Shown piece after piece: positions 3,256 through 61,216 of a stretch of 64,000 nt of DNA; position 1 is the stretch's first letter, and each line of letters opens with the position of its first letter. The notes under the pieces are model-generated. The model was not told the DNA's origin, made no database searches, and was given only the letters and a program-made list of their open reading frames with translations. The DNA lies in the NCBI GenBank assembly GCA_009691465.1, contig SICK01000001.1, forward strand, positions 24,705 to 88,704. Direction: 5' to 3'. Made by a program: the position numbers and the translations under genes. This DNA comes from Candidatus Kaiserbacteria bacterium. GTDB lineage: Bacteria; Patescibacteriota; Minisyncoccia; Phycocordibacterales; SBAW01.

Positions 3256-3269
3256 TGTAGTATTAGCCC

Positions 3270-3608
3270 ATGATTTCGAAGGAGGAGGTACTCAAACTCG
3301 CCGAGCTGGCGCGGCTCAAGATTGGGGATGGGGAGGTTGAGGGACTGCAAAAAGATATTTCGAGCATTTTGGAGTACGTGGGACAAGTGAGCGCCGTCCA
3401 GCCGCAAGGAGAGACCTTTCTGTCGGACAGCAAGGACTCACCTTTCGGCCTACACACCGTGATGCGCGAGGACCTGCCTCGACTTGCGTCGGGCAAGGCG
3501 GGTGTGCCCACCCCGGTGCTCGGCGAGCGCGAAGCGCTTTTGAATGCGTTCCCCACGCGCGAGGGCGACTTCAACGTGGTCCGGAAGATAATCCAAAAAG
3601 ATGAATAA
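3270..3608 (+). CDS. gatC: Asp/Glu-tRNA(Asn/Gln) amidotransferase subunit C
   Basis: ISKEEVLKLAELARLKI...LQKDISSILEYVGQV is typical GatC. It overlaps gatA by 8 nt. Confidence 0.85.
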   Translation: MISKEEVLKLAELARLKIGDGEVEGLQKDISSILEYVGQVSAVQPQGETFLSDSKDSPFGLHTVMREDLPRLASGKAGVPTPVLGEREALLNAFPTREGDFNVVRKIIQKDE

Positions 3609-5010
3609 ACTGAACGAGCTCACTATCGCAGAAGCATCAAAAAAACTCGCTGCGGGCGAGATAACCGCCGTGCAGTTGGCGCAGGCGTGTCTGGATGAGA
3701 TTGCAAAAAGAAATCCGGAGCTGAACGCTTATCTGGAAGTGTTTGATGATGTGCTAGAGCAAGCCAAGAAAGCCGACGAACGCCGCGCCGCGGGGGAGAG
3801 TCATCCTCTGTTGGGAATTCCGCTCGCTGTAAAAGACAATATTTTGATACAGGGGCGTGTCGCGTCGGCCGCGAGCAAGATGCTCGAACAGTATGTCGCG
3901 ACCTATGACGCAACGGTGATAAAAAAACTCAAAGAAGCCGGGGCAGTATTCCTCGGTCGCACCAACATGGACGAATTTGCGATGGGCGGCAGTAACGAAA
4001 ATTCGGCTTTTGGTCCTGCAAAAAATCCGCATGATGAAAGTCGAGTGACCGGCGGCTCATCGGGCGGTTCGGCGGCGGCGGTTGCTGCGCACCTCTGTTT
4101 GGGAGCATTGGGGAGCGATACGGGCGGCTCGGTGCGCGAGCCAAGCAGTTTTTGCGGTGTGGTCGGGTTTAAGCCGACCTACGGCGCAGTGTCGCGCTCG
4201 GGGTTGATGGCGATGGGCTCGTCTCTCGACCAAGTAGGCCCTATTACTAAAACGCTGGAAGATGCGGAGATATTGTTTGACACTATCCGCGGCAAAGACC
4301 CGTTGGACAGTACATCCGTAGACCCGGAAGATCTCAAATCACAAACCTCAAATAACAAACGCATCGGCGTGCCGCGCCACTTATTTAAAGAGGGGATAGA
4401 CCAAGACGTGCTTGAGCGGTTTGAAGCGTCGCTCAAAAAATTGGAGGGGCAGGGCTACGAGCTGGTTGATATCACCCTGCCATCCTCGCCGCTGGCGCTC
4501 GCCCTGTACTACATCATCATGCCCGCCGAAGCATCGAGCAACCTGGCGCGTTTCGACGGGGTGCGTTACGGATTGTCGCTCAAAGGCTCGTCGCTAATCG
4601 AAGATTATGCAAAAACGAGAGGGGAAGGTTTTGGCCCCGAGGTGCGCCGCCGCATCATGCTCGGCACCTATGTGCTTTCGGCCGGCTACTACGACGCCTA
4701 CTACGGCAAGGCCATCGCCGCACGCGCGCTTTTGCGCAAAGAATACAATGATGCGCTCAAGACGCTTGCGTGCATTGCAACACCCACGGTGCCCTCGCCC
4801 GCATTTGCTTTGGGAGAAAAGTCCGACCCGCTGGCTATGTATCTCGCCGATATTTTTACCGTTTCGGCAAACCTTACCGGCAATCCGGCCGTCTCGGTCC
4901 CGATGGGGACCGTAGAACGCGGAGGAAAAGCCCTGCCGGCAGGGTTGCAACTCACCGCTGCGCATGGGGATGAAGCGGCGCTCTTTGTGGTAGGAAAGGC
5001 GTTAGAATAG
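3601..5010 (+). CDS. gatA: Asp/Glu-tRNA(Asn/Gln) amidotransferase subunit A
   Basis: 469 aa. Amidase signature GGSSGGSAAAVAA and GSDTGGSVREPSSFCGVVGFKPTYG. Confidence 0.95.
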   Translation: MNKLNELTIAEASKKLAAGEITAVQLAQACLDEIAKRNPELNAYLEVFDDVLEQAKKADERRAAGESHPLLGIPLAVKDNILIQGRVASAASKMLEQYVATYDATVIKKLKEAGAVFLGRTNMDEFAMGGSNENSAFGPAKNPHDESRVTGGSSGGSAAAVAAHLCLGALGSDTGGSVREPSSFCGVVGFKPTYGAVSRSGLMAMGSSLDQVGPITKTLEDAEILFDTIRGKDPLDSTSVDPEDLKSQTSNNKRIGVPRHLFKEGIDQDVLERFEASLKKLEGQGYELVDITLPSSPLALALYYIIMPAEASSNLARFDGVRYGLSLKGSSLIEDYAKTRGEGFGPEVRRRIMLGTYVLSAGYYDAYYGKAIAARALLRKEYNDALKTLACIATPTVPSPAFALGEKSDPLAMYLADIFTVSANLTGNPAVSVPMGTVERGGKALPAGLQLTAAHGDEAALFVVGKALE

Positions 5011-5015
5011 AGGTG

Positions 5016-5603
5016 ATGCAAAACGGCGTCGATTTTTTGAACCTCGAGTATCTGCTCGTGCGCTCGTACGAGTTTGTAGCGAGCTTCCATGGGACACTAG
5101 GGCAATTCCCAGAGTGGGTAGGGGGAGTGGTATATTTTGTACTTGTGTTAGGCATGGTGCTGTCGTTTATACTCCTGATTTTTATTGTCTACTCCCAGAT
5201 CAAGCTTCTGCAGACCGAGCATGCCGGGTTCCACGCGATGGAGGCCGAGAGCCACGAAGCGCACGACCCCGAAGTAGAGTCGACCGGCAAGAACGACCGG
5301 TGGGAGCGCATTGTCGAGCTTGCCGCCTCGGCAAACGAAAGCGAGTGGCGCCGCGCGATACTGGAGGCCGACATCATGCTCGGGGACGTGTTGTCAGACC
5401 AGGGCTATGAGGGAGCGAGCGTCGGCGAGCAGCTGAAGATGGCCAACCCGATACAAATGACCACGCTCGACTTGGCATGGAAGGCGCACAAAGTGCGCAA
5501 CGACATCGCGCACGGGGGCGAGCGCTACAAGCTTGAGGAACGCGAGGTCCGCGTGGCCATAGACTACTTTAAACGCGTGTTTGAAGAATTCGCTGCGATT
5601 TAG
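5016..5603 (+). CDS. Membrane-anchored hypothetical protein with C-terminal helical domain carrying an RNDIAH (R-x4-H) motif
   Basis: TM helix VVYFVLVLGMVLSFILLIFIV. C-terminal AWKAHKVRNDIAHG. TAGAAT at 5003-5008 lies 7 nt before ATG 5016. Confidence 0.6.
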   Translation: MQNGVDFLNLEYLLVRSYEFVASFHGTLGQFPEWVGGVVYFVLVLGMVLSFILLIFIVYSQIKLLQTEHAGFHAMEAESHEAHDPEVESTGKNDRWERIVELAASANESEWRRAILEADIMLGDVLSDQGYEGASVGEQLKMANPIQMTTLDLAWKAHKVRNDIAHGGERYKLEEREVRVAIDYFKRVFEEFAAI

Positions 5604-5606
5604 CCA

Positions 5607-5642
5607 AACGAAAAGGCACCCTACTGGGTGCCTTTTCGTTAT
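5607..5642 (+). terminator. Rho-independent terminator
   Basis: AACGAAAAGGCACCC-TACT-GGGTGCCTTTTCGTT perfect hairpin directly after the stop at 5603. Confidence 0.65.
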
Positions 5643-5643
5643 C

Positions 5644-5718
5644 TGGTTGCGGGGGCGGGAATTGCACCCGCGACCTCAAGGTTATGAGCCTTGTGAGCTA
5701 CTACTGCTCCACCCCGCT
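5644..5718 (-). tRNA. tRNA-fMet (CAT), initiator-like
   Basis: AGCGGGGTGGAGCAG...CTCATAA...CCCCCGCAACCA. 1:72 is unpaired (A:A), A11:T24 is present, and the acceptor arm closely resembles the E. coli initiator. CCA is encoded. D-loop and T-loop are atypical. Confidence 0.85.
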
Positions 5719-6128: not shown

Positions 6129-6512
6129 CTATTTTTCCAACGAGGAGGGCAGGACACCCTTTTGTTCGCAGAAATTACGGAACTCGACTTTAAGACGGTC
6201 GAGCTCCTCGTCGGTCATGTCCTCGGCATCAATAAGGATGTTGCGTGCAGCATCGTTGGCCTTGATAAGTTCGTCGAGCTTAAGGTGTATCGCATGCGCA
6301 TCGCGGTTCTGGGTGTTTTGTATCAAAAACACCATCAAGAAGGTCAGCACGGTGGTGCCCGTGTTGATGATGAGCTGCCACGTGTCAGAGAAGTGGAATA
6401 TCGGTCCGCACAGCGCCCAGATGACGATGATAAAAAACGCCCATGCAAACGCCCACGAACTCCCCATCAACTGACTTGCTTTATGCGCCGCCTTCCGGAA
6501 CACGTCGTTCAT
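6129..6512 (-). CDS. Low-affinity iron permease family protein
   Basis: FSDTWQLIINTGTTVLTFLMVFLIQNTQNRDAHAIHLKLDELI matches the family signature as I remember it. Confidence 0.75.
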   Translation of the reverse strand: MNDVFRKAAHKASQLMGSSWAFAWAFFIIVIWALCGPIFHFSDTWQLIINTGTTVLTFLMVFLIQNTQNRDAHAIHLKLDELIKANDAARNILIDAEDMTDEELDRLKVEFRNFCEQKGVLPSSLEK

Positions 6513-7029
6513 ATACCGGTAGTGTAACCCGGAACTTCAGTGCCCGTATAGCCGGCAGTGGGGGGAGCGCAGGGAGGCTCGGCAGGTGGATACTAATCGC
6601 GACACGAGCCGAAGTGTAGGCCAGGTAGGAGAGGAAGAGTACATAGGGCAGCGACATCGCCACAAAGAATATCCACAGCCGTGTCGTCGGGGCGGCAAAC
6701 ATGTACAGTGCGCTGCTTATGAGCAGGGGCACAAAGGTCCGGTAGAGGGCATTGGTGTCAAACAGGGGAGTAACGCCGGCCTTATCCTCTGCGTAGAGCC
6801 AATAGAGAAAGGCAAATCCTCTCCACGTGGCATATACAGCGCTTACGAGGCATAGGGTCCACAGTGGCGTGTGGTACGAGCGCAGGACCAACAGCGCCGC
6901 AAAAAGCTGTGCGGCCGCCAGACCGCCGGCGAGCGGCAAGAACAGCGCAAGACGCGACGCGCGATAGGTCTCGCGCATCCAAGCAATAGGAGTGAATCGG
7001 GCTTCCATAAAAACATATCGTACCGCCAT
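6481..7029 (-). CDS. Hypothetical polytopic membrane protein
   Basis: 182-aa ORF with several hydrophobic helices. It overlaps the downstream gene by 32 nt. No recognised motif. Confidence 0.5.
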   Translation of the reverse strand: MAVRYVFMEARFTPIAWMRETYRASRLALFLPLAGGLAAAQLFAALLVLRSYHTPLWTLCLVSAVYATWRGFAFLYWLYAEDKAGVTPLFDTNALYRTFVPLLISSALYMFAAPTTRLWIFFVAMSLPYVLFLSYLAYTSARVAISIHLPSLPALPPLPAIRALKFRVTLPVYERRVPEGGA

Positions 7030-8148: not shown

Positions 8149-8170
8149 GGTACAATAAGGAGCGTTAAAA

Positions 8171-8851
8171 ATGATCTACTACGACCGCGTATCCAAAATA
8201 TACGCTGACAACTCTGTTGCACTCGAAGACGTCAGCTTCTCCGTAGAGCCGGGAGAGTTCGTCTCCATCGTCGGGCACTCCGGCGCGGGCAAGACGACGC
8301 TGGTCAAGATGCTCCTGGCCGAAGAAAAGCCCTCCAGCGGCGCGGTCTTTTTTGAGTCCATCAATATCCACGAGGTGCCGCTGTCCAAAATGGGCGCTCT
8401 GCGGCGCAAGATAGGCACGGTCTTTCAGGACTTCCGGTTGCTCCCCAACAAAACCGCGTACGAAAACATCGCCTTTGCGATGGAGGCGGCGGGCCGCAAT
8501 GAAGAAGAAATACACTCCGACGTGCCGCACGTGCTCGAGTTGGTCGACCTGGGCGACAAGATGAACAATTTTCCCGACGAGCTCTCCGGCGGCGAGCAGC
8601 AGCGCGTTGCTATCGCACGCGCCATCGTCAACCAGCCCGACGTCATCGTGGCCGACGAGCCGACGGGCAACCTCGACCCGGTCAACACGTTCGAAATCGT
8701 GCAAATCCTCAAAAAAATCAACGACCTCGGCACCACCATCATTTTGACCACCCATAACAAAGGCGTCATCGACGCACTCAAAAAACGCGTCATCACCATG
8801 GACCGCGGCAAGGTCATCCGCGACGATAGGGAAGGAAAGTATATACTGTAA
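8171..8851 (+). CDS. ftsE: Cell division ATP-binding protein FtsE
   Basis: Walker [10 protein letters not shown], signature [14 protein letters not shown], Walker [21 protein letters not shown] upstream. Confidence 0.9.
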
Positions 8852-8853
8852 CT

Positions 8854-9783
8854 ATGTTCAACTGGGTACTACTCAAGCGGGTGTTTCGGGCGGGGATACT
8901 CGACTTCTCGCGCAATGCGTTTGTCTCCTTTGCCTCCATCCTTGTCATGACCGTGACGCTCTTTGTGGTGGGGCTCACCGTCTTTGCCGGCGTGATACTC
9001 GGCTCGGCTCTGCAGGAGTTGCGCGACAAAGCAGACATCAACGTCTACTTCGTCCAGTCTGTCGCCGAGGACCGCATCCTCGAGATGAAGGCCTCGCTCG
9101 AAGCCCTGCCCGAGGTCTCCTCCGTGCAGTACCTTTCGCATGACGAGGCGCTCGCCGCGTTCCGTGAGCGGCACAAAAACGACCAGCTGACACTCAACGC
9201 TCTGGAAGAGTTGGGGGACAACCCGTTCGGCGCGGTACTCAACGTCAAGGCGAAAGACCTCTCCCAGTACGAGTCCATCGCGGCGTTCTTGCAGGACCAG
9301 CAGTCGCAGGACAGTGGCTCGGTCATCGACAAGATCAACTTCTATGACGAACAGCATCGCGCGGCGCTCGCCCGGCTCGAGCTCATCACCGACTCCTCAC
9401 AGCGGCTTGGGTTTATCATCATCGCTCTGCTTATCATCACCACCATCGCCATATCCTTTAATACCCTGCGGCTCGCCATATACACCAGCCGCGACGAGAT
9501 ACAAGTGATGCGGCTCGTCGGCGCGGGCTCCTTTTATATCCGCGCGCCCTTTATGGTCGAGGGTGTGCTCTACGGACTGGTTGCCGGCATCGTAACCCTG
9601 CTCCTCTTCTACCCGCTTGCGTACTGGCTCGGCACCTCGACCGGCAACTTCTTCGGCGGCGTCAATATATTTACCTACTACACCGGGCACTTCCTCTTCT
9701 TTTTCGCGCTTATTCTTGGCACCGGCGCGCTCATCGGCGCCATCGCCAGTTGGCTTGCGGTCAGGCGGTATCTCAAGATATAA
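8854..9783 (+). CDS. ftsX: Cell division permease-like protein FtsX
   Basis: Directly follows ftsE. N-terminal TM, periplasmic domain and three C-terminal TM helices (MRLVGA motif). Confidence 0.85.
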
Positions 9784-16492: not shown

Positions 16493-16535
16493 ACCCCGTG
16501 AGATGGCCGGGAGGCCTATCTCACTGGGGTAGAAT
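16493..16535 (+). promoter_or_regulatory. Conserved hairpin (ACCCCGTGAGAT / ATCTCACTGGGGT) fused to a TAGAAT -10 box
   Basis: Arm 1 at 16493-16504, inner GGCC-GGGA-GGCC hairpin, arm 2 at 16518-30, TAGAAT at 16530-35. The same arms recur at 23345-23407. Confidence 0.45.
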
Positions 16536-16541
16536 GTAGTG

Positions 16542-17093
16542 ATGCGCAAGCGGCAGCACCTCCTGCAGGATTTTTTTATTATTGCCGCGAGTATTGCACT
16601 CGCGGTCGCTATTGTGCGCTACGACTTGGTGCAACTGTTGCTCTTGCACCTGGGCGGAGGCAAAACGCTCGTCGCGTTTGTTGCAGGACTCTTTTTTACT
16701 TCTATCGCGACCACCGCGCCCGCAATGGCGGTCTTAGGCGAGCTGTCACTCAACAATAACCTGTTCTTTGTGGCGGTGGTCGGCGGCGCGGGCGCGGTCA
16801 TCGGCGACTACATCCTGTTTGTATTCGTACGCGACCGCGTGTCGGATGACATTGCCTATCTGTTGGCGCGCACGGGCACGCCGCGCTTCTTTAAAATATT
16901 CCACCGCCGCAGTTTTAAGCGTGTGCTACCGTTCCTCGGCGGGCTCATTATCGCCAGCCCCCTGCCCGATGAGTTGGGGTTGGCCCTGCTCGGCATATCC
17001 AAAATGCCCACGAGCCGCTTTCTGGCGATTTCTTTTGCTTTTAATACCGTCGGTATACTCTTGATAGGTTTGGTGGCGCGTTCGCTGGTCTAA
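16542..17093 (+). CDS. Hypothetical membrane protein
   Basis: Multi-TM ORF. ATG 16542 lies 6 nt after TAGAAT (the track uses GTG 16539). Confidence 0.55.
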   Translation: MRKRQHLLQDFFIIAASIALAVAIVRYDLVQLLLLHLGGGKTLVAFVAGLFFTSIATTAPAMAVLGELSLNNNLFFVAVVGGAGAVIGDYILFVFVRDRVSDDIAYLLARTGTPRFFKIFHRRSFKRVLPFLGGLIIASPLPDELGLALLGISKMPTSRFLAISFAFNTVGILLIGLVARSLV

Positions 17094-17113
17094 TCGCATG
17101 CTACACTTTTTGT

Positions 17114-18886
17114 ATGATAGATAAGTCGGCACTCGACTACATCCGCGCCGAGCTCAAAAGCGGAAAAAATAGAGAGGAGATAGGTCGCACCATGATGACG
17201 GGCGGCTGGTCGGTGGTTGATGTCAATAAAGCGTTTGCAGAGCTCGACGCACCTGCGGCACCTGCAACAGCGCTCACACCTCTCCCGGTTGCTCCGGTTG
17301 TCCCCGTGGTTGCAAAACCCGCGACCTCGCCGCTACCACCCGTTGCGACCCCTGCTCCGGCTCCCTTGGCATCGCAGGCGGCTCCAACTCCAACTCCAAC
17401 TCCCGCGCCCGTTGCCGTTTCTGCTCCTGCTCCTGCTCCCGCGAAGCACCCGCGGCATGTACTCAAATATATTTTTGCAGTCATCGGTGTTTTGGTACTG
17501 CTTTGCGGCGGCACCGTCGGCTATGCTTATGCCGCAGAGCAGTTTGTTTTTCTGCCGCCCCTGCCGTTTACACTGCCGCTCCCGTTCCTTTCCTCGGCGC
17601 CTTACAACAGCAATCAGGTGCTGCAGGATATGGCGCTGGGCTTTACGCATATCTCCCAGGCCTCGTTTGATTCCAACGTAAGCATCATGGCCGAGCCGCG
17701 CGACGCAGGTGTAACACCACTCGTGCTCGATGCATCTAACAAACAAACACTGCAATCTTTGGCCGACTATGTGCCGTCCGAGTTCAAACTAAGTCTCTCC
17801 TTCGGCGGTGCGGCCGAAAAGACGGATGGCGCGGGCAATGCGCGCATTACCGCAGCCGGCTCGCTCCAATCGACCGACTTCTCGATGGAGGCGGCACTCG
17901 AGGCCCGCAAAGTGGGGGACACAGTATATATTCTTTTGAGCAAATTTCCGTCGGTCTTCTTTGATGTGTCAGCCATCAGTGACAAGTGGATAGCCATCAC
18001 GCCCGAAGATCAAAAAACGTACGGAGGAGGCACCGGTCTCTCGTCGGTACTTGCAAGCACGACTCCGGATGACCAGGCAAAAGCCCGCGCGCGGCTTACT
18101 AATCTCCTGTCGCTCGCCGACCAGTACCGCGTCTTCGTGTTTTCTACCGGTCTTGAGCGCGTGGACCTCGGCGGGGCACCACTCTACCACTACACGCTCG
18201 CGCTTAACCCCGAAGGGGTGGGTCCGTTTTATGAGGCGGCGCTTGCGGCTTATGGCAGCGACCCCGGCTACGGCTTTACCCAAACAGAACTCGACTATCT
18301 GCAGAGCCCGGACGGCAAGCAGTTACTCGACTATCTCGGCAAAAATATGACGCTCGAGGTGTGGGCCGACGGCACAGGCATCCCGCATGAGCTGAAGCTG
18401 TCTATGCGGCTGGTCCCGAGCGACGATATAGTGCGGATGAAGGACAAACAGGTGCGGCTGACCGTCGATGTGCGCCTCAATGACATCAATACGCCGGTGA
18501 CCATCGCTGTGCCTACTCCTACTATCACCGCGCAGGAAGCCGAAAAGCTCATCTTCGGTTCTGCGTTGAGCGATGCACGCGCAAAAGCGCGTGATGCTCG
18601 TCGCATCGCCGACACAAAATCAATACAGCTTGCATTCGAGCTCTACTACAACGACAATAAACAGTATCCAGCAACGCTTGCGGCTATTGCTCCCACCTAC
18701 TTGCCCGTAGTACCTACAGACCCGCTCGACCATATGCCGTATCTCTACGTGGTCGGCACTAGCGGGGAGACGTACAAACTCAGCGCCAACCTCGAGAACT
18801 CAAAAAATACTGCAATCAAAAAGGGTGTAAGTACCAAGGCGTGCGACGGCAGTGCCGGCCGCTACTGCTACACGGTGAGTCAGTAG
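17114..18886 (+). CDS. Membrane-anchored extracellular protein with Pro/Ala-rich linker and C-terminal pilin-like globular domain
   Basis: PA/PT-rich tract, a single TM (VLKYIFAVIGVLVLLCGG), and a C-terminus ARDARRIADTKSIQLAFELYYNDNKQYP...C...C resembling the post-helix part of type IV pilins. Confidence 0.6.
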   Translation: MIDKSALDYIRAELKSGKNREEIGRTMMTGGWSVVDVNKAFAELDAPAAPATALTPLPVAPVVPVVAKPATSPLPPVATPAPAPLASQAAPTPTPTPAPVAVSAPAPAPAKHPRHVLKYIFAVIGVLVLLCGGTVGYAYAAEQFVFLPPLPFTLPLPFLSSAPYNSNQVLQDMALGFTHISQASFDSNVSIMAEPRDAGVTPLVLDASNKQTLQSLADYVPSEFKLSLSFGGAAEKTDGAGNARITAAGSLQSTDFSMEAALEARKVGDTVYILLSKFPSVFFDVSAISDKWIAITPEDQKTYGGGTGLSSVLASTTPDDQAKARARLTNLLSLADQYRVFVFSTGLERVDLGGAPLYHYTLALNPEGVGPFYEAALAAYGSDPGYGFTQTELDYLQSPDGKQLLDYLGKNMTLEVWADGTGIPHELKLSMRLVPSDDIVRMKDKQVRLTVDVRLNDINTPVTIAVPTPTITAQEAEKLIFGSALSDARAKARDARRIADTKSIQLAFELYYNDNKQYPATLAAIAPTYLPVVPTDPLDHMPYLYVVGTSGETYKLSANLENSKNTAIKKGVSTKACDGSAGRYCYTVSQ

Positions 18887-18953
18887 CCTTCACCTGCGCT
18901 ACAGCCGGGGTGCGTAATCATAGGCCCGCGAGGCCGTCTGGTATATTGAGATT

Positions 18954-20194: not shown

Positions 20195-20223
20195 TTGACA
20201 AAATCCCCTTATTTTGCTACAAT
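20195..20223 (+). promoter_or_regulatory. Consensus sigma70-type promoter of the DEAD-box helicase gene
   Basis: TTGACA (20195-20200), 17 nt, TACAAT (20218-20223). ATG at 20234. Confidence 0.65.
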
Positions 20224-20233
20224 AGTTCCTTCA

Positions 20234-21493
<1,260 letters not shown>

Positions 21494-21707: not shown

Positions 21708-21728
21708 CCCTTTGCTATACTGTGGGGT

Positions 21729-25019: not shown

Positions 25020-25028
25020 ACTTTTGGT

Positions 25029-43177: not shown

Positions 43178-43293
43178 CAAAAACGAAGTTTTCTGGAGGG
43201 CAGAAAATTTCCTGCTGATAAATTTTCCTACTGCACGGCCCCGTCGGGCCTGCAGACCCTCCGAAAAACTTGTTTTTGCTACACTAATTACGT

Positions 43294-44692: not shown

Positions 44693-45355
44693 CTACCGAA
44701 CTGTCCCCAGTCGGCTTTTTATTAACTCCAACGTTTCTGCGCCTGACTTGTCGCGCATTTCGGCGGTGGGCACAGTGATATGCGAGAGCGCTTTATACTT
44801 TTCGCGGCGCTCCTTAAGCAGGGCCGGGTAGCAGCGGCGCAGGGAGTCTTGCTCACTCTCGCCGTTTTGCATACTAAAATAGTTGCCCCAGGCCACCGGC
44901 TTCGGCTCTTTGAAAAACCGTTCTACCATGTGCTCGATAGAGCCTTCGTCGACATCCAAGTGGACCACCAAACAGTTCTCTCTCAAAATCTGGAGTGTCT
45001 CGGGTTGGAGCTGCACGACGCTCCCCGTGGTGTCAAAAACAAAATTTTTGCCGCCGGTCTTCATCGATGCCTCGCGGGTAAAAGTGTTTTCTAGCTCCAA
45101 ATATTTTTGCTCGCGTTCTTTATAGCCCTCGCTGGTGGGGTAGCCCAGCCACGACGATATGTCGTCCATGCCGGCAAACCCGAGCGCCTTTTGTATCTCC
45201 TCGTCTACCTGGTACCACAAAAACCCCTTGTCTCTCTCGAGTACTTTGGAGCGGTAGCTTTTGCCGGCGTTGGACATCCCCACAAAAGAAAGGCGCAGGG
45301 TGCCCGCGGCGAGGTGTGCGTCAAACTCCTCGGGTCGGAGCTGCTGGGACTGCAT
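44693..45355 (-). CDS. P-loop NTPase/kinase-like protein
   Basis: Walker A GMSNAGKS. 220 aa. No further family assignment possible. Confidence 0.55.
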   Translation of the reverse strand: MQSQQLRPEEFDAHLAAGTLRLSFVGMSNAGKSYRSKVLERDKGFLWYQVDEEIQKALGFAGMDDISSWLGYPTSEGYKEREQKYLELENTFTREASMKTGGKNFVFDTTGSVVQLQPETLQILRENCLVVHLDVDEGSIEHMVERFFKEPKPVAWGNYFSMQNGESEQDSLRRCYPALLKERREKYKALSHITVPTAEMRDKSGAETLELIKSRLGTVR

Positions 45356-45404
45356 TTTGGTATACTATAGCGGTTCGTTTTATAAGTAAAACAACTCTTT
45401 GCCT

Positions 45405-52555: not shown

Positions 52556-52660
52556 CTAAAAACTAAAGGCAAAGGTGGAGACGATCATCGAGACTATCAC
52601 GATACCGCCGATGATTATGGCGCCGATTTTGACGTTGCGGTCTCTGTTTTTTCCGTACAT
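52556..52660 (-). CDS. Small membrane peptide (34 aa), below the track cutoff
   Basis: MYGKNRDRNVKIGAIIIGGIVIVSMIVSTFAFSF*. TATAGT (minus strand, 52668-73) lies 7 nt before the ATG. Confidence 0.35.
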   Translation of the reverse strand: MYGKNRDRNVKIGAIIIGGIVIVSMIVSTFAFSF

Positions 52661-52679
52661 GTGAGGTACTATAGCAAAG

Positions 52680-53069
52680 ATGAGGGAGTTTAAAAAGCGC
52701 CGGACCTACGGGGCAGAAATACTGCGGATTGCGGGGGGTAGCCTGGGTATCGGCCTGCTTGCGGCCGCGGCGGTTATCGCCGGCCGGGGGGCGTATGACA
52801 TGTACGGCAAATTTGCCGAGGCGGCCGCCGCCCGCACCGGGGCCGAGGCACAACTTGCCGAACTGCAGGGTCGCCAAGCGGCTGTCGAGACTGCGGTAGA
52901 GGGGCTCTCGAACGAGCGCGGGGTCGAGGGCGCGGTGCGCGAGCGCTACGGCGTCGCGCGGCCCGGCGAGGGCCAGATAGACATCGTGCGGAGTGCCTCC
53001 AGCAGCGAGGCCCTACGGCAAGAAAAAGGTATGTTTGAGAAGCTGTGGGACCTGCTGTTCGTGTGGTAA
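52680..53069 (+). CDS. FtsB/DivIC-like septum formation initiator family protein
   Basis: TM, coiled coil, then VRERYGVARPGE (compare the FtsB ..G.v.pGE motif). Confidence 0.6.
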   Translation: MREFKKRRTYGAEILRIAGGSLGIGLLAAAAVIAGRGAYDMYGKFAEAAAARTGAEAQLAELQGRQAAVETAVEGLSNERGVEGAVRERYGVARPGEGQIDIVRSASSSEALRQEKGMFEKLWDLLFVW

Positions 53070-53166: not shown

Positions 53167-53206
53167 AAAGTTGCACAGACTCCCAAATAATTTATACTGG
53201 AGCTAT

Positions 53207-53449
53207 ATGGACAAAACCGTAACCATTTACTCAACGCCGACCTGCCACTTTTGCCAGATGGCCAAAGAGTTCTTTGCCGAAAAGAACGTCCAATTTACCA
53301 ACTTTGATGTGTCGCAAGACGCCGTCAAGCGCGAGGAGATGATTAAGATGACCGGGCAACTTGGGGTGCCGGTGATTGTGGTCGGAGGCGATGTGATGGT
53401 CGGTTTTGACCGTGCCAAACTCGCCGCCAAGCTCGGCATCGAGGCATAA
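53207..53449 (+). CDS. Glutaredoxin/NrdH-like redoxin
   Basis: VTIYSTPTCHFCQMAKEFF...GVPVIVVGG. CxxC thioredoxin fold. Confidence 0.85.
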   Translation: MDKTVTIYSTPTCHFCQMAKEFFAEKNVQFTNFDVSQDAVKREEMIKMTGQLGVPVIVVGGDVMVGFDRAKLAAKLGIEA

Positions 53450-53529: not shown

Positions 53530-53570
53530 CTGACCGCAAAACTGTACCACGACGGTGCTATAATTTATAC

Positions 53571-53852
53571 ATGGATGCGGATTTGGAGGAGTTAAAGCGG
53601 CAGATTGAGCGGCTCGAGAAGACGACTACCGAAACCAACCGGTCGGTGCACAAAATGCGTCGCTCCCAGCGCCGGCAGACGATACTGCGCGTGCTGTGGT
53701 GGGTGGTAATCTTTGGGATCAGCGCCTATACGTACTTGACCTACGTGCAGCCCTACGTCGACCAGATGATGAGCGCCTATGGCAATGCCAAAGACTTTCA
53801 AGTGCAGGTCCAGGACTTTTTTGCCCAGTTTGGGCACAAGACGGCAAACTAG
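53571..53852 (+). CDS. Small coiled-coil plus TM protein
   Basis: TGcTATAAT (53559-64) lies 6 nt before the ATG. LEELKRQIERLEK...VLWWVVIFGISAYTYLTYV. Confidence 0.55.
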   Translation: MDADLEELKRQIERLEKTTTETNRSVHKMRRSQRRQTILRVLWWVVIFGISAYTYLTYVQPYVDQMMSAYGNAKDFQVQVQDFFAQFGHKTAN

Positions 53853-53853
53853 G

Positions 53854-54444: not shown

Positions 54445-55158
54445 TTAGCAGTAGTCGCGGGCGGGTTGCTTGACCTGCTCGGTCATAAATAACAATACCA
54501 CGATACCAAACCAGATGCAGAGGAATATCCAGAACGTCGCACCCCCGCTACTGCCCAGTATAAAAAAGTTGAAGAGCGTATGCAATGTAATGGCAAGGAT
54601 AAGTCCCACCAGAGCCGCCACGCGCCTTGCCGCCACCCCTTTGTAGAACGCCAGCGCCAACGCGACCCCGATGGTGGCCGACGAGAGCGAGTGCAGCAAG
54701 GTGGCACCTATAAACCGCAGGTCGCCCGTGATGATGGACTTCAAAACCTCGCCGTCCTGGAGCGGCGTAAGGAGGAAGAGCGCGTTCTCGAACGCAGAAA
54801 AGCCCAGTGCCGCAGTGACCAGATAGATGACTGCGTCAAGCGGCTCGTCAAAGACCCGCAGGCGCAACGCCACCAGGTATGCCGCACCGAACTTTATGAC
54901 CTCTTCTATTGCCGCCCACGAAAAAAGGATGAGTGTGGGGGGATGGGTCGGGCATATGCCTCCTGCAATGAGGTATGAGCAGGCAAGGCGCTCGAGCTGG
55001 AGCGCAAGGTATACGCCCGCGGCGCCGGCCACAAAGCACAAAAAGAGGTAGCGTTTTGGCTCCGGCTGACAACGGTCTTCGAGTAGCCAAAACGTAAGCC
55101 ACAACAGCGCCGGGAGCAGGCCGCCGAGCAGAGCGACAAAAAGAACGGGGGACTCCAT
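54445..55158 (-). CDS. PrsW-family intramembrane protease
   Basis: AAIEEVIKF (EExxK), FSAFENALF, LLHSLSSA, HTLFNFF. Multi-TM. TATAAT (minus strand, 55165-70) lies 6 nt before the ATG. Confidence 0.7.
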   Translation of the reverse strand: MESPVLFVALLGGLLPALLWLTFWLLEDRCQPEPKRYLFLCFVAGAAGVYLALQLERLACSYLIAGGICPTHPPTLILFSWAAIEEVIKFGAAYLVALRLRVFDEPLDAVIYLVTAALGFSAFENALFLLTPLQDGEVLKSIITGDLRFIGATLLHSLSSATIGVALALAFYKGVAARRVAALVGLILAITLHTLFNFFILGSSGGATFWIFLCIWFGIVVLLFMTEQVKQPARDYC

Positions 55159-55170
55159 GAGGAGATTATA

Positions 55171-57297
55171 CTATGCAACCGGCCAGTGCTCGACCATCAG
55201 TAGGTCTTTTTTGCTGGGCATACTGTCCCAAATCTCTTCGGTGACAAACGGCATAAAGGGGTGCAGGAGTTTAAGCGAGTTCTCCAACAAGTAATACAAC
55301 GTCGCACCGTACTCCGGCTTGCCCTTGCTCTCCTCCAAGATCTCGGCGGCAAAGCGGTCCCATACGTAGTGGTAGAGCTTCTCCGCCGCCATATAGATGC
55401 GATACTCCTCCAGGTCTTTGGTGACGTCTTGCGCCATCGTATCAAACTCCGCTTTGAGTTCCGGCTTAATCTCGCCCGTACTATCCTGCGAGAGCACAAA
55501 CCGGGTGATGTTCCAGAGCTTGTTGGCAAAGAGTTTGTAACCCTTTATCTTTTGCTCGTCGAACTTGACGTCGCTCCCCAGCGGCGCCCCCACGATGAGC
55601 CCCATGCGCAAGGCGTCCGCGCCATACTTTTCTATCATCAGAAGCGGGTCAACGCCGTTATTGAGTGACTTGCTGAACTTGCGTCCGTCTTTGGCGCGCA
55701 CAAGCCCGTGGATAAACACGATGTTAAACGGTACCACCCCCAGGTGGAAGGTGCCCATCAGTATCATGCGAGAGACCCATAGCTGGAGTATCTCGTACGC
55801 CGGAGACATAAACGACGTGGGGTAGAACGTCTCCAGGTCTGCCGTCTTCTCGGGCCATCCGAGCGTGGAGAAGGGCCACAGTGCAGAGGAAAACCAGGTG
55901 TCCAGCACATCAGGGTCTTGGCTCCACTCCTCGCCCGGAGAAGTCTCGCTCACGGTGGACTCCTCGCCCCTGTACCACACGGGGATGCGGTGCCCGAACC
56001 AGATCTGCCGGCTGATGCACCAGTCGCGCAGGTTGTCTATCCAGTGGAAGTACGTTTTGCGAAATCCTTCCTGCGGCATATCCACCGCGCCGCTTTCTAC
56101 CGCCGCGCGCATAAGCGCTTTGAGCGTAGTCTCGCTCCCGCTCGCGACACCGGGTATCTCCGAATAGGGGATAGTAAATGGTTTGTTGACGTCTATCCAC
56201 CACTGGAGTTTTGGCAGCGGCTCAATAATCGCGCCCGTGCGCTCGGAGGTCGAAACGTTTTGTTTGATGTCCTCTACTTTTTCCAACAAGCCCTCGCTCT
56301 GCAGCCACTCGGCTACCAGCTCGCGCGCCTCGGCAGTTTTTTTGCCGTGCAGGCGACCTTCTACTTCCATCTTTGCGTACTCGTTGATTACTTGGGGCCG
56401 CGGGAGGTCGTGCCGCTCGGCAATGTCCCAGTCGGTTTGGCTGTGCGCCGGCGTAACCCCCAAGGCGCCGGTACCAAACTCTGGTTCGACCGCAGGGTCC
56501 GCAATTATTTTTATATGCACCGGGACATCACAAAACACCGCATCGTACTCTTGACCCACATATTGTCTGTAGCGCTCATCGTCGGGGTGCACCGCCACTG
56601 CGGTGTCGCCCACTTTTGTCTCGAGCCGTGTGGTGGCTACGGGGATAGGGAAGTCTTTAGAGTAGCGAAACGTGTAGAGTTTGGCGTCACGCTCTTCGTA
56701 CAAGGTCTCATCGTCCGAAATAGTAGTCTGGCCTTTTGGGTCCCAGTTGACGATGCGGTTGCCCCGGTAGATAAGCCCCGCCTCGAACATCCGCTTAAAG
56801 GCGGTAAACACCGCCGTGTTGCGCGCCTCATCCATCGTGTAGGCGTAGCGCGACCAGTCGAGCGACGCGCCCATACGGCGGACCTGGCTCAAAATGGTGC
56901 TCTCGCTGTTTTTTGCAAACTCGGTGACGCGCTTGACCAGCTCATCGCGCCCGATGTCGTAGCGGCTTTTCCCCTCTTCTTTTTGGATATCTTTTTCTAC
57001 CCGAGCTTGGGTGGGGAGTGCTGCCGAGTCGGTGCCCGGGATCCATAGCGCTTTTTTGCCGCGCATCCGCTGAAAGCGGATGACGATATCCTGCAGGGCG
57101 TCTTCGTAGGCGTGGCCCACGTGGAGCGTGCCGGTCACGTTAGGCGGGGGGAGGATTACGGTAAAGGCCTCCGCGCGCTCGCCAGGCAGGTTGTCCGGGT
57201 TAAAGTAGCCCGATTCCTCCCACTTCTTATATATAGCTCCCTCGGTCGCCGTGGGGTCGTAGGGCTTTAGAAACTTCTCGGGGACGTCTGGGGCCAT
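55171..57297 (-). CDS. valS: Valine--tRNA ligase (compact, no C-terminal coiled coil)
   Basis: HIGH region PNVTGTLHVGHA, editing-domain motif TTRLET, KMSKS as KFSKSL. 708 aa. Confidence 0.95.
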   Translation of the reverse strand: MAPDVPEKFLKPYDPTATEGAIYKKWEESGYFNPDNLPGERAEAFTVILPPPNVTGTLHVGHAYEDALQDIVIRFQRMRGKKALWIPGTDSAALPTQARVEKDIQKEEGKSRYDIGRDELVKRVTEFAKNSESTILSQVRRMGASLDWSRYAYTMDEARNTAVFTAFKRMFEAGLIYRGNRIVNWDPKGQTTISDDETLYEERDAKLYTFRYSKDFPIPVATTRLETKVGDTAVAVHPDDERYRQYVGQEYDAVFCDVPVHIKIIADPAVEPEFGTGALGVTPAHSQTDWDIAERHDLPRPQVINEYAKMEVEGRLHGKKTAEARELVAEWLQSEGLLEKVEDIKQNVSTSERTGAIIEPLPKLQWWIDVNKPFTIPYSEIPGVASGSETTLKALMRAAVESGAVDMPQEGFRKTYFHWIDNLRDWCISRQIWFGHRIPVWYRGEESTVSETSPGEEWSQDPDVLDTWFSSALWPFSTLGWPEKTADLETFYPTSFMSPAYEILQLWVSRMILMGTFHLGVVPFNIVFIHGLVRAKDGRKFSKSLNNGVDPLLMIEKYGADALRMGLIVGAPLGSDVKFDEQKIKGYKLFANKLWNITRFVLSQDSTGEIKPELKAEFDTMAQDVTKDLEEYRIYMAAEKLYHYVWDRFAAEILEESKGKPEYGATLYYLLENSLKLLHPFMPFVTEEIWDSMPSKKDLLMVEHWPVA

Positions 57298-57306
57298 TGG
57301 GCCATT

Positions 57307-58416
57307 CTAGCTTGCTATAGAAAGATTTCCAACGGCTCGCAGCTCGGGGCCGGCGGTATCATTTAGCCCCGAGAGGGCGCGGGCGAGGGCGGCTTGGGCT
57401 ATCATGATGGCGTTGTCGCCCGTTATTGAGAGTTGCGGGAGGCGCAGGTCGATGTCGGGAAACTCCTCCAGTACGAGCGCCTGCAGCTTTTCGCGGATGT
57501 AGCGGTTGGCCGCCACCCCGCCGCCTATTACGAACGTCTGCGCGTTGGTCTGCTCCAACGCCTGGCGCGTTTTGGATACCATCACATCGGCGATGGCGTC
57601 CTCAAGCTCGGCAGCAAAGGCTGCGATCTCGTCGTTTGAGAGCTTTTGTATACCGCCGCGGTCGCGCAGCGCGTACAGAGCAGCAGTTTTTAGTCCCGAA
57701 AAAGAAAAATCACAGGTACCGGAGTTGATCATCGGTCGGGGGAGTTTGGGCACGGAAAAAGTTCCGGAAAAGGGAGTTGGGGTCGTGTTCATCTCTCCCT
57801 TTTCCGGAAGCTTTTTCCGTGCCTGTGCAGCCAGCTTAGAAATCTCCGGCCCGCCGGGATAGGGGAGCCCCAGCATGCGCGCGACTTTATCGAACGCCTC
57901 ACCGACGGCGTCATCCAGCGTCTTGCCGATGATCTCGTATTGCAGCCACTCTTTCATCAAAACAAACTCCGTGTGTCCGCCCGAAATCAAAAGCGCAAGC
58001 ACAGACATTCTAACGTTTTGCAAAATGTTTGAATGTTCGCCGCTTGGTTGGGCAAGAGAGGAGATTAAGTGGCCCTCCATGTGATTGGTGGGCAAGAGGG
58101 GGACGTTCTTTTCAGCCGCAACTTTTTTGGCAAACTCGATCCCGGTCCAGAGCGCCGGCTCGAGCCCCGGGCCGTGGGTCACCGCTACGGCGTCGAACTC
58201 CTCGTTTGCAAACTGCTCAAACAGCGCGGGTAGGTTCTTTTGGTGCTCGCGCTTGGCCAGGTTGGGGTATACCCCGCCGTAGGGCGAGTGGAGTAGGGCT
58301 TGCGAAAGCAGAGCGGCCTTTTTGGTCTCAAATGCAAAACCCTCGGAGGTTTTGGTGCCCTCAACTAAAGCAATTCCGGTCTCATCGCAGGAGGTTTCTA
58401 TTGCTAACACTTTCAT
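57307..58416 (-). CDS. tsaD: tRNA N6-adenosine threonylcarbamoyltransferase TsaD
   Basis: MKVLAIETSCDETGIALV, HMEGHL, GGGVAAN. The track N-terminal extension runs into tRNA-Val and was rejected. Confidence 0.9.
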   Translation of the reverse strand: MKVLAIETSCDETGIALVEGTKTSEGFAFETKKAALLSQALLHSPYGGVYPNLAKREHQKNLPALFEQFANEEFDAVAVTHGPGLEPALWTGIEFAKKVAAEKNVPLLPTNHMEGHLISSLAQPSGEHSNILQNVRMSVLALLISGGHTEFVLMKEWLQYEIIGKTLDDAVGEAFDKVARMLGLPYPGGPEISKLAAQARKKLPEKGEMNTTPTPFSGTFSVPKLPRPMINSGTCDFSFSGLKTAALYALRDRGGIQKLSNDEIAAFAAELEDAIADVMVSKTRQALEQTNAQTFVIGGGVAANRYIREKLQALVLEEFPDIDLRLPQLSITGDNAIMIAQAALARALSGLNDTAGPELRAVGNLSIAS

Positions 58417-59150: not shown

Positions 59151-59237
59151 CAATTTTTTTAGCCTTATTCCACAACGCCGTTTGGAGCACCCAAACGGGA
59201 AATTTTCGCGAGTTGGAACCATGCTAGCATTTAAGAC

Positions 59238-59708
59238 ATGGCGCGAATTGGTAATGTCATTTTTTGGATTATTGCTGTGGCCGTGGGGGGTTTCTTCTTA
59301 ATGATGTTTGCGGCTGGAATTATGTCTGGTTTGGGTACACAGAATCAGGCAAACGGAGTCTCAGTGACCGACTCAAATCCTATTGGGCTTCATATAATAA
59401 ACGAACAAGTAAAACTGGGAGACACCATTACGGTTGTATGGGATTCGACGAGAATTCCTCCTAATGCTCGGGGTATGGGCTTGCATATTGTCCGGCCAGA
59501 CCATAATTACGTAAGTGGAGTTGGGGTCGTAGGAATTGACCCAAGACTTGGCTCGTATCAACTGCAAAAGCTCCCCAGCGAACCTTTTTATGGATTTGTT
59601 GACGGCGGAGAGTACTACGTCAGCGCTCTGGTCACCGATACGGCAGACCCTAATGGGAATATACTCATGAAGGCGGATAGTGATTCCTTTCGAATAATCT
59701 CTCAATGA
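59238..59708 (+). CDS. Hypothetical membrane-anchored protein
   Basis: N-terminal TM VIFWIIAVAVGGFFLMMFAAGIM followed by a beta-rich domain. AT-richer codon usage. Confidence 0.5.
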   Translation: MARIGNVIFWIIAVAVGGFFLMMFAAGIMSGLGTQNQANGVSVTDSNPIGLHIINEQVKLGDTITVVWDSTRIPPNARGMGLHIVRPDHNYVSGVGVVGIDPRLGSYQLQKLPSEPFYGFVDGGEYYVSALVTDTADPNGNILMKADSDSFRIISQ

Positions 59709-60082: not shown

Positions 60083-60148
60083 TTCCCTCCCAAACCGCTG
60101 CCACTGATACAGCTCCCATACTAGCTGGTTCCAATTAGCTCCCACTTG

Positions 60149-60200
60149 GGTCAGCGCAGAAAAAGAGCCGCCATAAGGCGGCCTTTTTTGTACGCTGACC
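60149..60200 (+). terminator. Long composite hairpin / bidirectional terminator
   Basis: GGTCAGCG...AAAAAG.GCCGCC-ATAA-GGCGGC.TTTTTT...CGCTGACC. Confidence 0.6.
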
Positions 60201-60355
60201 ACTAAGCAAAGTCTGGGAGACTTTGCGGCCGGGAATCGAAAGCCGGAGCGGGCCCCAGACCAGCAGGTCTGGGAGCGAGGCAGGGTCGTGCGGCCAAAAT
60301 TGCGACGGCAATTTTGGAACGCCTGACCGATCCGTGCTTGCCTGCGGCAAGACAC

Positions 60356-60370
60356 TTCCCGGTAGGGTCA
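60356..60370 (+). repeat. Direct repeat of the tRNA-Glu 3' end (att-like)
   Basis: TTCCCGGTAGGGTCA is identical to 59136-59150. Confidence 0.7.
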
Positions 60371-60394
60371 GCGCAAGGGGAGTATGATAGGGCT

Positions 60395-60799
60395 ATGGCT
60401 AAACGAAAAGCGCCCGGAAGCACGGGCAGGGGGAAATTTTATCGGATAGAGTTGCGGCCCAAAGGGCAGTTTAGCAGCTTCCGCGTACAGGATGTGGGTA
60501 AAAAGGGCGGGCTCGAGCGCCTGGCCGGACACCGCCGTAGCGGTAGTTGGGACACGGTGTCGTGGCTGATATCCAAAGACAAAGCGTCGGTGGTCAAAGG
60601 GCACCTCAAGATTACGGGCAAAAAAGAGCAGAGCGTACTCAAACAAATCAAAGGGCCGATTGTGCACGTCAAAGCCGATATCTTCCGCGCGCATCCGCGC
60701 AACGTCCCGGAGGCCAAAAAGCCCACCCCCGCTATGCGCCGGGCACAGCGCGCCAACATCAAAAAAGCACAGACGGCCCGGGCAAAGAAGCGCCGCTAA
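60395..60799 (+). CDS. Hypothetical basic protein
   Basis: MAKRKAPGSTGRGKFYRIELRPKG... with a K/R-rich tail. TATGAT (60383-88) lies 6 nt before the ATG. Confidence 0.55.
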   Translation: MAKRKAPGSTGRGKFYRIELRPKGQFSSFRVQDVGKKGGLERLAGHRRSGSWDTVSWLISKDKASVVKGHLKITGKKEQSVLKQIKGPIVHVKADIFRAHPRNVPEAKKPTPAMRRAQRANIKKAQTARAKKRR

Positions 60800-60817
60800 A
60801 AACGCTATACTAGAGGT

Positions 60818-61216
60818 ATGGTCAAAAAGATAGTTACCTTCTTCGACAAGCTTGAGGACCGGGTGCGTATACGGCTCTCGCACAACCCCATACTCTATGC
60901 GCTTGTGGGCGCGGTGGGGATCATTTTGCTCTGGAAGGGCGTGTGGGAGGTCGCCGAGCTCATCCCCGCGCTCCATGGGTTCGGCTCGCTCATTGCCGGC
61001 ATCATCATATTGCTGATGAGCGGCCTCTTGGTGTCGTTTTTTATAGGCGACAGCATCATCCTCTCGGGATTTAAAAAAGAAAAGAAATTGGTAGAAAAGA
61101 GCGAGCTCGATATTTTAAAAGCCGAAGAGTCGCAGACCACCGAGATTATGCGCAAGCTCGAGCATTTAGAAAAGGACATCCACGAGCTCAAAGGCGACCA
61201 CCGCCACAACGTATAA
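60818..61216 (+). CDS. Hypothetical membrane protein with C-terminal coiled coil
   Basis: TATACT (60806-11) lies 6 nt before the ATG. Two TM helices followed by a charged helix. Confidence 0.55.
   Translation: MVKKIVTFFDKLEDRVRIRLSHNPILYALVGAVGIILLWKGVWEVAELIPALHGFGSLIAGIIILLMSGLLVSFFIGDSIILSGFKKEKKLVEKSELDILKAEESQTTEIMRKLEHLEKDIHELKGDHRHNV

Follow-up and report, generated by a model that had tools for sequence, protein, structure and literature searches.

Leaderless-dominated gene expression is already established for Actinobacteria, Deinococcus and many archaea, and its bacterial signature, as used in GeneMarkS-2, is a Pribnow box lying 6-8 nucleotides (nt) from the start codon; the bacteria that carry it, Actinobacteria and Deinococcus-Thermus, make up that program's group C, are predicted to be 25-50% leaderless and include Deinococcus deserti, in which 167 of the 262 genes with mapped transcription start sites are leaderless (PMC6028130). 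Here we are concerned with one feature of a 64,000-nt stretch of DNA from Candidatus Kaiserbacteria bacterium (contig SICK01000001.1; "the window" means this whole stretch): a hexamer of the form TANNNT that ends 6-8 nt before the first possible ATG of about half of the protein genes. What is this hexamer, and with what kind of messenger RNA (mRNA) does it go? Our answer, drawn from sequence, is that pervasive leaderless mRNAs are very probably the main mode of expression in this genome, which is that of a member of the Patescibacteria (the Candidate Phyla Radiation, or CPR) and is Paceibacteria-like. Set beside the systems already known, the twist would be that no Shine-Dalgarno (SD) use can be detected, and this in a CPR lineage whose ribosomes are reduced.

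The likeness to group C is close. As in Mycobacterium tuberculosis, Streptomyces and D. deserti, a -10 element stands 6-8 nt before many starts, here at about 20 of the 36 genes placed to be first in a unit (56%). The differences are that group C organisms use SD sequences at their leadered and internal genes, whereas SD sequences in the window are at background; that the phylum is Patescibacteria; that the enrichment is found at ATG only; and that gaps of 8 and 9 nt are common too. GTG-initiated leaderless genes are also common in mycobacteria.

Three other systems are worth holding up to the window. Among Parcubacteria, no more than 48% of 16S rRNAs were found to have the anti-SD sequence CCTCCT (Tsurumaki et al. 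2022, RNA 28:1041, PMC9297842); the window, to judge by its best GatA matches, probably belongs to the same broad lineage, and its want of SD enrichment is what loss of the anti-SD predicts, but that study deals with the rRNA feature only, makes no mention of "leaderless" and leaves start-codon selection open. The Bacteroidetes (GeneMarkS-2 group B; Flavobacterium johnsoniae, PMC6847099) resemble the window in having mRNAs without SD sequences and, at leadered genes, upstream regions rich in A and poor in G; unlike the window, where a promoter -10 would remove the leader altogether, they have leadered mRNAs, with a translational signal before first and internal genes alike. The leaderless transcriptomes of haloarchaea and Sulfolobus (group D) are similar in that a majority of units are leaderless and SD use is minor, but their promoter box lies about 26 nt upstream and is read by archaeal machinery, whereas ours is a bacterial extended -10. 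A literature search, which was not exhaustive, found no link of "leaderless mRNA" to genes of CPR, Patescibacteria or Parcubacteria; PMC12641261 cites an RNA-seq set for the CPR bacterium Nanosynbacter lyticus (PMID 35975994).

If the leaderless reading is right, it supplies a mechanism of start selection for those Parcubacteria reported to be without an anti-SD. It would also mean that gene callers expecting a ribosome-binding site misplace starts and miss small open reading frames (ORFs) in metagenome-assembled genomes (MAGs) of this sort, where the -10 geometry would pin starts to the nucleotide and lend support to small genes, such as an ORF of 42 amino acids (aa) kept in 11 relatives. And it would offer a natural reduced-ribosome system for asking whether leaderless initiation is ancestral or has been derived repeatedly.

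A lone spacing peak before ATG

The window has a G+C content of 57% (about 21% A and 28% G) and holds about 76 protein genes, 13 tRNA genes and the gene for RNase P RNA; no rRNA gene lies within its 64 kb. For the main test we took 74 ORFs, picked by codon-usage (coding) score, and gave each its first in-frame ATG as start—a rule blind to the hexamer—and we define the gap as the number of nt that separate the hexamer's final T from the A of the ATG. Of these ORFs, 24 have the hexamer at gap 6, 6 have it at gap 7 and 7 have it at gap 8, where the background at other positions is 0.85 each (binomial P = 3e-28 for gap 6 alone). Counts that use no annotation agree: TANNNT-N6-ATG occurs 29 times on the two strands, against 13.1 +/- 3.7 in 100 dinucleotide-preserving shuffles, none of which reaches 29, and its TGN-extended form occurs 7 times where 0.86 are expected. 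Across gaps 0-40 the peak at gap 6 is the only one; with an ATG that opens an ORF of at least 50 aa it comes to 25 for TANNNT against about 5, and to 21 for the variant TANANT against about 2.5. Neither GTG nor TTG has a peak.

Altogether, 37 of the roughly 76 protein genes have the leaderless geometry, by which we mean gaps of 6-8. An earlier, sequence-only reading of the window had put the number at about 20 and listed 22 pairs of hexamer and ATG, 20 on the plus strand and 2 on the minus strand. All of its coordinates are exact (gap 6 at 16 pairs, gap 7 at 6), and the phenomenon is real, but it was undercounted: the first-ATG test yields 15 sites that were not listed, at ATGs 1225, 8854, 22696, 25029, 31796, 45355(-), 57297(-), 62143(-), 52660(-) and 38366(-, doubtful) for gap 6-7 and at ATGs 6512(-), 33787, 40467(-), 43294 and 53207 for gap 8. 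The comparison with shuffled sequence that it proposed, for TANNNT at -6/-7, gives a sharp enrichment, which is equally plain against other spacings.

Could this be an artefact of composition, of chance or of the way starts are chosen, with stop-rich TA hexamers simply tending to lie before a first ATG? There is something to the worry, because a first ATG may owe its status to an in-frame TAG or TAA that is itself part of a TANNNT, and the counts could be inflated in this way. But the peak is sharp at gap 6 instead of being shared out among positions 0, 3, 6 and 9, all of them in frame; it survives both the annotation-free counts and the dinucleotide shuffles; the same procedure gives no such peak in 48 loci of other phyla; and the preferred hexamer, TATACT, is free of stop codons in the frame that matters, while 12 of its 34 copies in the window have an ATG at gap 5-8. 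We give this explanation practically no credence.

The starts themselves can be placed without the hexamer. At most leaderless-type sites the reading frame is closed by a stop codon 3-30 nt before the ATG, with no alternative start codon between, and Pfam profiles fix several N termini: position 1 of Pyr_redox_2 falls on residue 2 of TrxB, position 1 of the matching profile on residue 5 of glutaredoxin and likewise on residue 5 of the low-affinity iron permease, position 2 of LexA_DNA_bind on residue 6 of LexA, position 3 of DUF4260 on residue 7 and position 4 of SecG on residue 9. These domain boundaries and the upstream stops mark many of the ATGs as true starts independently of the hexamer.

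The sites are given here from hexamer to ATG, with strand, gene, hexamer and gap; lexA has its own section below.

1213..1227, plus: ligA, TAGACT-N6-ATG, in-frame stop 9 nt upstream
3258..3272, plus: gatC, TAGTAT-N6-ATG
5003..5018, plus: 195-aa membrane protein, TAGAAT-N7-ATG, hexamer overlapping the gatA stop codon
5992..6006, minus: 45-aa hydrophobic ORF, TGCTATACT-N6-ATG, between tRNA-Asp and tRNA-Met
6510..6526, minus: low-affinity iron permease, TACACT-N8-ATG
8842..8856, plus: ftsX, TATACT-N6-ATG, 2 nt past the ftsE stop
16530..16544, plus: VTT-domain membrane protein, TAGAAT-N6-ATG, geometry in 3/4 orthologs
17102..17116, plus: 590-aa protein, TGCTACACT-N6-ATG
18942..18956, plus: GH18-like protein, TGGTATATT-N6-ATG
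21716..21731, plus: cupredoxin-like protein, TGCTATACT-N7-ATG
22684..22698, plus: 213-aa protein, TACACT-N6-ATG, start overlapping the upstream stop (ATGA), geometry in only 1/3 orthologs
25017..25031, plus: winged helix-turn-helix regulator of 92 aa, TAGACT-N6-ATG, just after a terminator at 24952-24970, geometry in 11/11 orthologs
25368..25382, plus: 42-aa basic ORF, TGTATAGT-N6-ATG, peptide kept in 11 relatives and geometry in 10
25518..25532, plus: 78-aa membrane protein, TGTATACT-N6-ATG, geometry in 4/4 orthologs
26359..26373, plus: 190-aa secreted protein, TGTTATACT-N6-ATG, geometry in 4/9 orthologs
26965..26980, plus: DUF4260 protein, TGTATACT-N7-ATG
27344..27358, plus: DUF5652 protein, TATACT-N6-ATG, geometry in 7/7 orthologs
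31784..31798, plus: DoxX-like protein, TGTATCAT-N6-ATG, directly after a terminator-like hairpin
32796..32810, plus: ZIP transporter, TGCTATAGT-N6-ATG
33523..33537, plus: 68-aa membrane protein, TATAAT-N6-ATG, geometry in 5/8 orthologs
33773..33789, plus: 276-aa protein, TAGGAT-N8-ATG, geometry in 8/14 orthologs
35683..35697, plus: HhH-GPD glycosylase, TGGTAAAAT-N6-ATG, directly after a terminator at 35641-35670
38364..38379, minus: RNase J, doubtful, TAAGTT-N7-ATG, a weak hexamer that is not conserved
40465..40481, minus: secG, TAGCCT-N8-ATG
42604..42619, plus: lemA, TGCTATACT-N7-ATG
43280..43296, plus: M48 peptidase, TGCTACACT-N8-ATG
45353..45367, minus: shikimate-kinase-like protein, TAGTAT-N6-ATG (or TATAGT-N8)
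52658..52682, plus: DivIC-like protein, ATG 52680, TACTAT-N7-ATG, back to back with the next
52658..52682, minus: 34-aa ORF, ATG 52660, TGCTATAGT-N7-ATG, the strong promoter being its sole support
53193..53209, plus: glutaredoxin (grx), TATACT-N8-ATG
53559..53573, plus: 93-aa membrane protein, TGCTATAAT-N6-ATG
55156..55170, minus: PrsW protease, TATAAT-N6-ATG
57295..57309, minus: leuS, TAGAAT-N6-ATG
59225..59240, plus: 156-aa ORF, tentative, TGCTAGCAT-N7-ATG, atypical codon usage
60383..60397, plus: 134-aa basic protein, TATGAT-N6-ATG
60806..60820, plus: 132-aa membrane protein, TATACT-N6-ATG
62141..62155, minus: thioredoxin reductase (trxB), TAAGAT-N6-ATG, in-frame stop 9 nt upstream

For RNase J, the coding score favours a start 40 codons downstream of 38366, and the ATG at 38366 gives a long N-terminal extension. 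The 45-aa ORF (ATG 5994) has a single homolog, at 75% identity in locus L160, where TGCTATACT-N6-ATG recurs but the surrounding tRNA genes are rearranged.

How are these genes arranged? The 20 of 36 mentioned at the outset belong to the class with a spacer of at least 30 nt upstream or a divergent neighbour, and 17 further sites follow 2-28 nt behind a co-directional gene (examples are gatC, the ORF starting at 5016, ftsX and prsW). The earlier description of the hosts as operon-first genes is therefore correct for part of them; at 17 of the 37 sites the hexamer lies in, or touches, the 3' end of the preceding gene. On the leaderless reading, most genes would be their own transcription units.

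The hexamer as a promoter element

Aligned on the hexamer, 37 sites give the consensus TGnTAtAcT, with T at -3 in 19/37 and G at -2 in 19/37; the -35 region carries no information in this alignment. A scan of 20001-40000 for full sigma-70 promoters, -35 and -10 together, returned 10 sites against 7.4 expected, which is no enrichment, and caught none of the leaderless-type sites, the exception being a canonical promoter at 20195. We read this outcome as promoters without a -35 element, not as missing promoters. The sole canonical promoter is the following.

20195..20236, plus: DEAD-box helicase gene, TTGACA-17-TGCTACAAT, promoter end and ATG 10 nt apart, implied leader of about 3-4 nt

The motif is not confined to starts of translation. 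In 10 of the 13 tRNA genes an extended -10 ends 8-11 nt before the mature 5' end; the motif is also found 31-70 nt ahead of genes that plainly have a leader, and terminator hairpins lie directly before the hexamers at 31784 and 35683. To judge from features of this kind, the hexamer is a -10 promoter element and not a ribosome site. A gap of 6 puts the canonical +1 on the A of the ATG, and there is a preference for T at -1 and for A at +1.

In the relatives described below and in the window, 44% of the starts without a recognisable TANNNT still have a T at -1, just before the A of the ATG, which makes a pyrimidine/purine pair of the transcription-start type. Because the T(-1)/A(+1) pair is typical of transcription start sites, some genes that we count as non-leaderless may be leaderless by way of -10 elements outside the TANNNT pattern.

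The tRNA genes concerned lie at 5644-7256, 11454, 44217, 53093-53926 and 58554-59151, with implied precursor leaders of about 1-4 nt. We considered such short leaders as a peculiarity of the lineage and rejected the idea: tRNA genes in the control loci of other phyla show a -10 at 7-9 nt too, and the loci of close relatives contain no tRNA genes. The RNase P RNA is a weak class A match of about 300 nt, at 109.5 bits against a gathering score of 100. Its gene begins 5 nt past the preceding ORF and has a TGATATAAT promoter inside the 3' end of that ORF (region 46245-46262); as this promoter ends 4 nt ahead of the start of the Rfam match, the true 5' end of the RNA probably lies 2-3 nt inside the match.

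Promoters of divergent genes also overlap on opposite strands. The genes with ATGs at 52660(-) and 52680(+) are 19 bp apart, and their hexamers, TATAGT and TACTAT, share 5 bp of the duplex as a symmetric bidirectional promoter; at 45353-45370, TGGTATACT on the plus strand overlaps the divergent TATAGT/TAGTAT on the minus strand.

The lexA control region

The most telling single gene is lexA, whose upstream region reads as follows.

28304..28368, plus: lexA control region, with a DnaA-box-like TTATCCACA, repeated TTGTGTA, TTGCAG and then TATACT-N6-ATG

Leaderless geometry is found in 56 of 69 lexA orthologs, some at gap 6 and others at gap 8. All 68 lexA relatives keep the block TTATCCACA ... 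TTGTGTA ... TTGTGTA-TTGC ... TGTGCTAnnnT, while the distance from hexamer to ATG, which for most of them is 6-8 nt, is 27-33 nt in a subset that has gained a leader of about 25-30 nt. The hexamer of the lexA relatives thus travels with the promoter and operator and not with the start codon, which argues that it is a promoter element.

This bears on what is otherwise a natural thought: that TAnnnT at -12 to -7 might be no promoter at all but an AU-rich, non-SD translation signal of the Bacteroidetes type (GeneMarkS-2 group B). An organism without SD signals does need some other cue to its start sites, and the 17 of 37 sites less than 30 nt after a co-directional gene look operon-internal, where a translation signal would be at home. 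A signal to ribosomes would not, however, be expected to carry a TGn extension, to stand at promoter-like distance before untranslated tRNA genes or 31-70 nt upstream of other genes, or to stay with the promoter/operator block of lexA relatives when the ATG shifts by about 25 nt; and it would have to explain why the motif is absent from the well-anchored non-leaderless starts of BipA, LepA, PyrG, MurJ and GroEL and why an Actinobacteria control, in a group whose leaderless transcription is experimentally shown, has a peak at the same place. We regard the translation-signal explanation as very improbable and keep to the promoter.

Many lexA relatives (L093, L100, L116 and L114 among them) have a palindrome, GCACAA-T-TTGTGC, that overlaps the extended -10 and is probably a LexA operator on a leaderless promoter. 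The TTATCCACA motif, with at most 1 mismatch, occurs 19 times in the window against 7.4 +/- 2.7 in shuffles, for example at 28304, 32457, 24589, 24976, 11657, 11695 and 13076; several copies are intergenic (11.5-13.1 kb, 24.6-25.0 kb and upstream of lexA). A replication origin was considered for these DnaA-box-like motifs and set aside: there is no dnaA or dnaN among the annotated genes of the window, and no switch of GC skew.

Shine-Dalgarno sequences at background

If the ribosome is not guided by SD sequences at the leaderless-type genes, is it so guided elsewhere? We scored the cores GGAG, GAGG and AGGA at -16 to -5 and compared them with the region farther upstream.

Window: SD cores at 9%, against 12% in the control region
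20 Patescibacteria gatA loci: 7%, against 7%
79 close relatives: 8.4%, against 8.3%
48 loci of other phyla: 22%, against 7%

There is thus no SD enrichment in the window, in the gatA loci or in the close relatives. Anti-SD duplex energies average -2.9 kcal/mol at 37 non-leaderless starts and -3.35 kcal/mol at random positions, and the Pfam-anchored starts of BipA, LepA, PyrG, MurJ and GroEL have no SD. Bases -8 to -1 of the non-leaderless starts are 33% A and 15% G. At the leaderless-type sites no SD is usable either, as would be expected of mRNAs with a terminal AUG, for which the ATG-only enrichment also speaks; at 5016, 25530 and 60818 there are strings that resemble GAGG, but they lie right against the ATG. 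That the listed genes have no SD had been stated before, correctly, but this is not peculiar to them and holds for all genes of the window, and the scoring of SD usage that was proposed at the same time comes out at background in window and relatives alike.

Clean SD sites occur only at 8171, 24726 and 29424; the first two, 8171 being ftsE, were the exceptions already named, both of them real, and the third is new.

8155..8173, plus: ftsE, Shine-Dalgarno-like, AAGGAG-N8-ATG
24683..24728, plus: leadered gene with SD, TGCTATACT 37 nt upstream and then AAAGGAG-N6-ATG
29402..29426, plus: Pif1-like helicase, AGGAGG-N5-TTG

A scan of 159 loci for the conserved 3' region of 16S rRNA matched a single Actinomycetaceae control locus and no Patescibacteria locus. 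As far as these sequences tell, SD:anti-SD pairing would have no detectable general role.

Relatives and controls

To which lineage does all this belong? The best GatA matches, at 55-64% identity, are to MAGs labelled Paceibacterota, Parcubacteria, Nomurabacteria or Saccharibacteria. A LexA-based metagenome scan gave 79 close relatives (48-92% identity, 700 kb), many of them from groundwater 0.1-0.2 um fractions (their sources include Hainich groundwater and the JGI samples of the Ga0209542, Ga0209211 and Ga0209541 contigs), and in these and the other comparative sets the first-ATG test was run on all six-frame ORFs of at least 80 aa. The counts of TANNNT are these.

79 close relatives: 151 at gap 6, 80 at gap 7 and 84 at gap 8; background 26 per position
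20 Patescibacteria gatA loci: 44 at gap 6; background 8.9
12 Actinobacteria loci (positive control): 16 at gap 6 and 11 at gap 7; background 0.78
48 loci of other phyla: 20 and 23; background 17, peak absent

Gap 9 is also raised in the close relatives, at 62 against the background of 26. The geometry is also conserved at the level of single genes: it is present in 122 of 160 orthologs of the leaderless-type genes but in 26 of 126 orthologs of other genes of the window (Fisher P = 1e-21), and even gatC, compared across 14 Patescibacteria orthologs of 27-52% protein identity over aligned segments, has TANNNT at gap 6-7 in 7 of them. Spacing statistics, SD use at background, conservation both lineage-wide and gene by gene and the promoter-type motif all support the leaderless reading first offered in the sequence-only reading, and together they argue for it.

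A larger claim can be put tentatively, as one on which we come down just short of evenly balanced: a clade of groundwater and soil Paceibacteria may have dropped SD:anti-SD pairing and taken up leaderless initiation as its default, each gene having its own -35-less extended -10 and the rest being served by coupling or by A-rich, unstructured leaders. Were this so, a bacterial lineage with reduced ribosomes would turn out to follow a haloarchaea-like logic of initiation.

How expression would work

For about half of the protein genes, the arrangement to be explained is a -10 without -35, often TG-extended, whose last T lies 6 (less often 7-8) nt before the first possible ATG. An RNA polymerase of the sigma-70 type would open this -10 and begin transcription with the A of the ATG or, where the gap is 8, 1-2 nt before it; the transcript would begin with AUG; and a ribosome carrying initiator tRNA would recognise the 5'-terminal AUG with no SD pairing. 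As many of these promoters lie in the tail of the gene before, or hard against it, even genes with 2-20 nt between them could each keep a 5'-terminal AUG of their own.

Several points weigh against so simple a picture, and they should be put together. The start of transcription at the A of the ATG is one that we infer from spacing only. The 17 of 37 sites that lie less than 30 nt behind a co-directional gene leave no room for a terminator, and read-through transcripts would hold the ATG internally. The spread of gaps is broader here (6 above 7, 8 and 9) than in the Actinobacteria control (6-7 only), and some mRNAs may carry leaders of 1-3 nt. The three clean SD sites, with ideal spacing, are more than one would look for by chance with 6-7-mers, and the anti-SD may be intact. 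The ortholog counts include near-identical contigs and so are not counts of independent events, and the sites at 38366, 22696 and 59238 are weak or doubtful.

The breadth of the spacing raises the one alternative that deserves serious room: the promoters are real, but the start usually falls 1-4 nt before the ATG, so that the mRNAs are near-leaderless, most plausibly at sites with gaps of 8-10. Gaps 8 and 9 are indeed enriched in the relatives (84 and 62 against 26), lexA orthologs switch between gaps 6 and 8, the genes at 20234, 40557 and 24239 have their -10 at gap 10, and T(-1)/A(+1) is favoured. But gap 6 is the commonest in the window (24 of 37) and makes the A of the ATG the canonical +1; moreover, mRNAs with leaders of up to 5 nt pass by convention as leaderless, and such leaders are too short for an SD, which would make this a refinement of the leaderless reading and not a replacement for it. 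As a general description we think it unlikely, though well worth keeping in mind.

What of the genes without the geometry? About 16 have a stop-to-start distance of at most 12 nt, which suggests coupling to the upstream gene, and these would be translated by reinitiation. About 20 others have a -10 farther upstream or none that can be detected, and would be served by A-rich, G-poor leaders of about 8-80 nt.

Two of the non-leaderless genes, both for translational GTPases, share a setting: bipA (13154; region 13110-13156) and lepA (50724; region 50690-50726) each start a few nt after a GC-rich hairpin with an A/T-rich run, cgcgggaggggcccgcctttttaattgtATG for bipA and cgccccgttgcggggcgaaaattcaaaATG for lepA, and neither has an SD or a nearby -10. 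The hairpin is either the terminator of an upstream unit or a structured leader.

Other regions of the window

For so compact a genome, 11526-13153 is unusually poor in genes; it has only the weak ORFs 11965 and 12471, the latter with a TGCTACAAT promoter 31 nt before it. The segment 59152-60394 is atypical as well: at 59.2-60.1 kb it holds two membrane-protein ORFs, 59238, whose codon-usage score is negative, and 59705. Neither has a Pfam match, and both may have been acquired recently.

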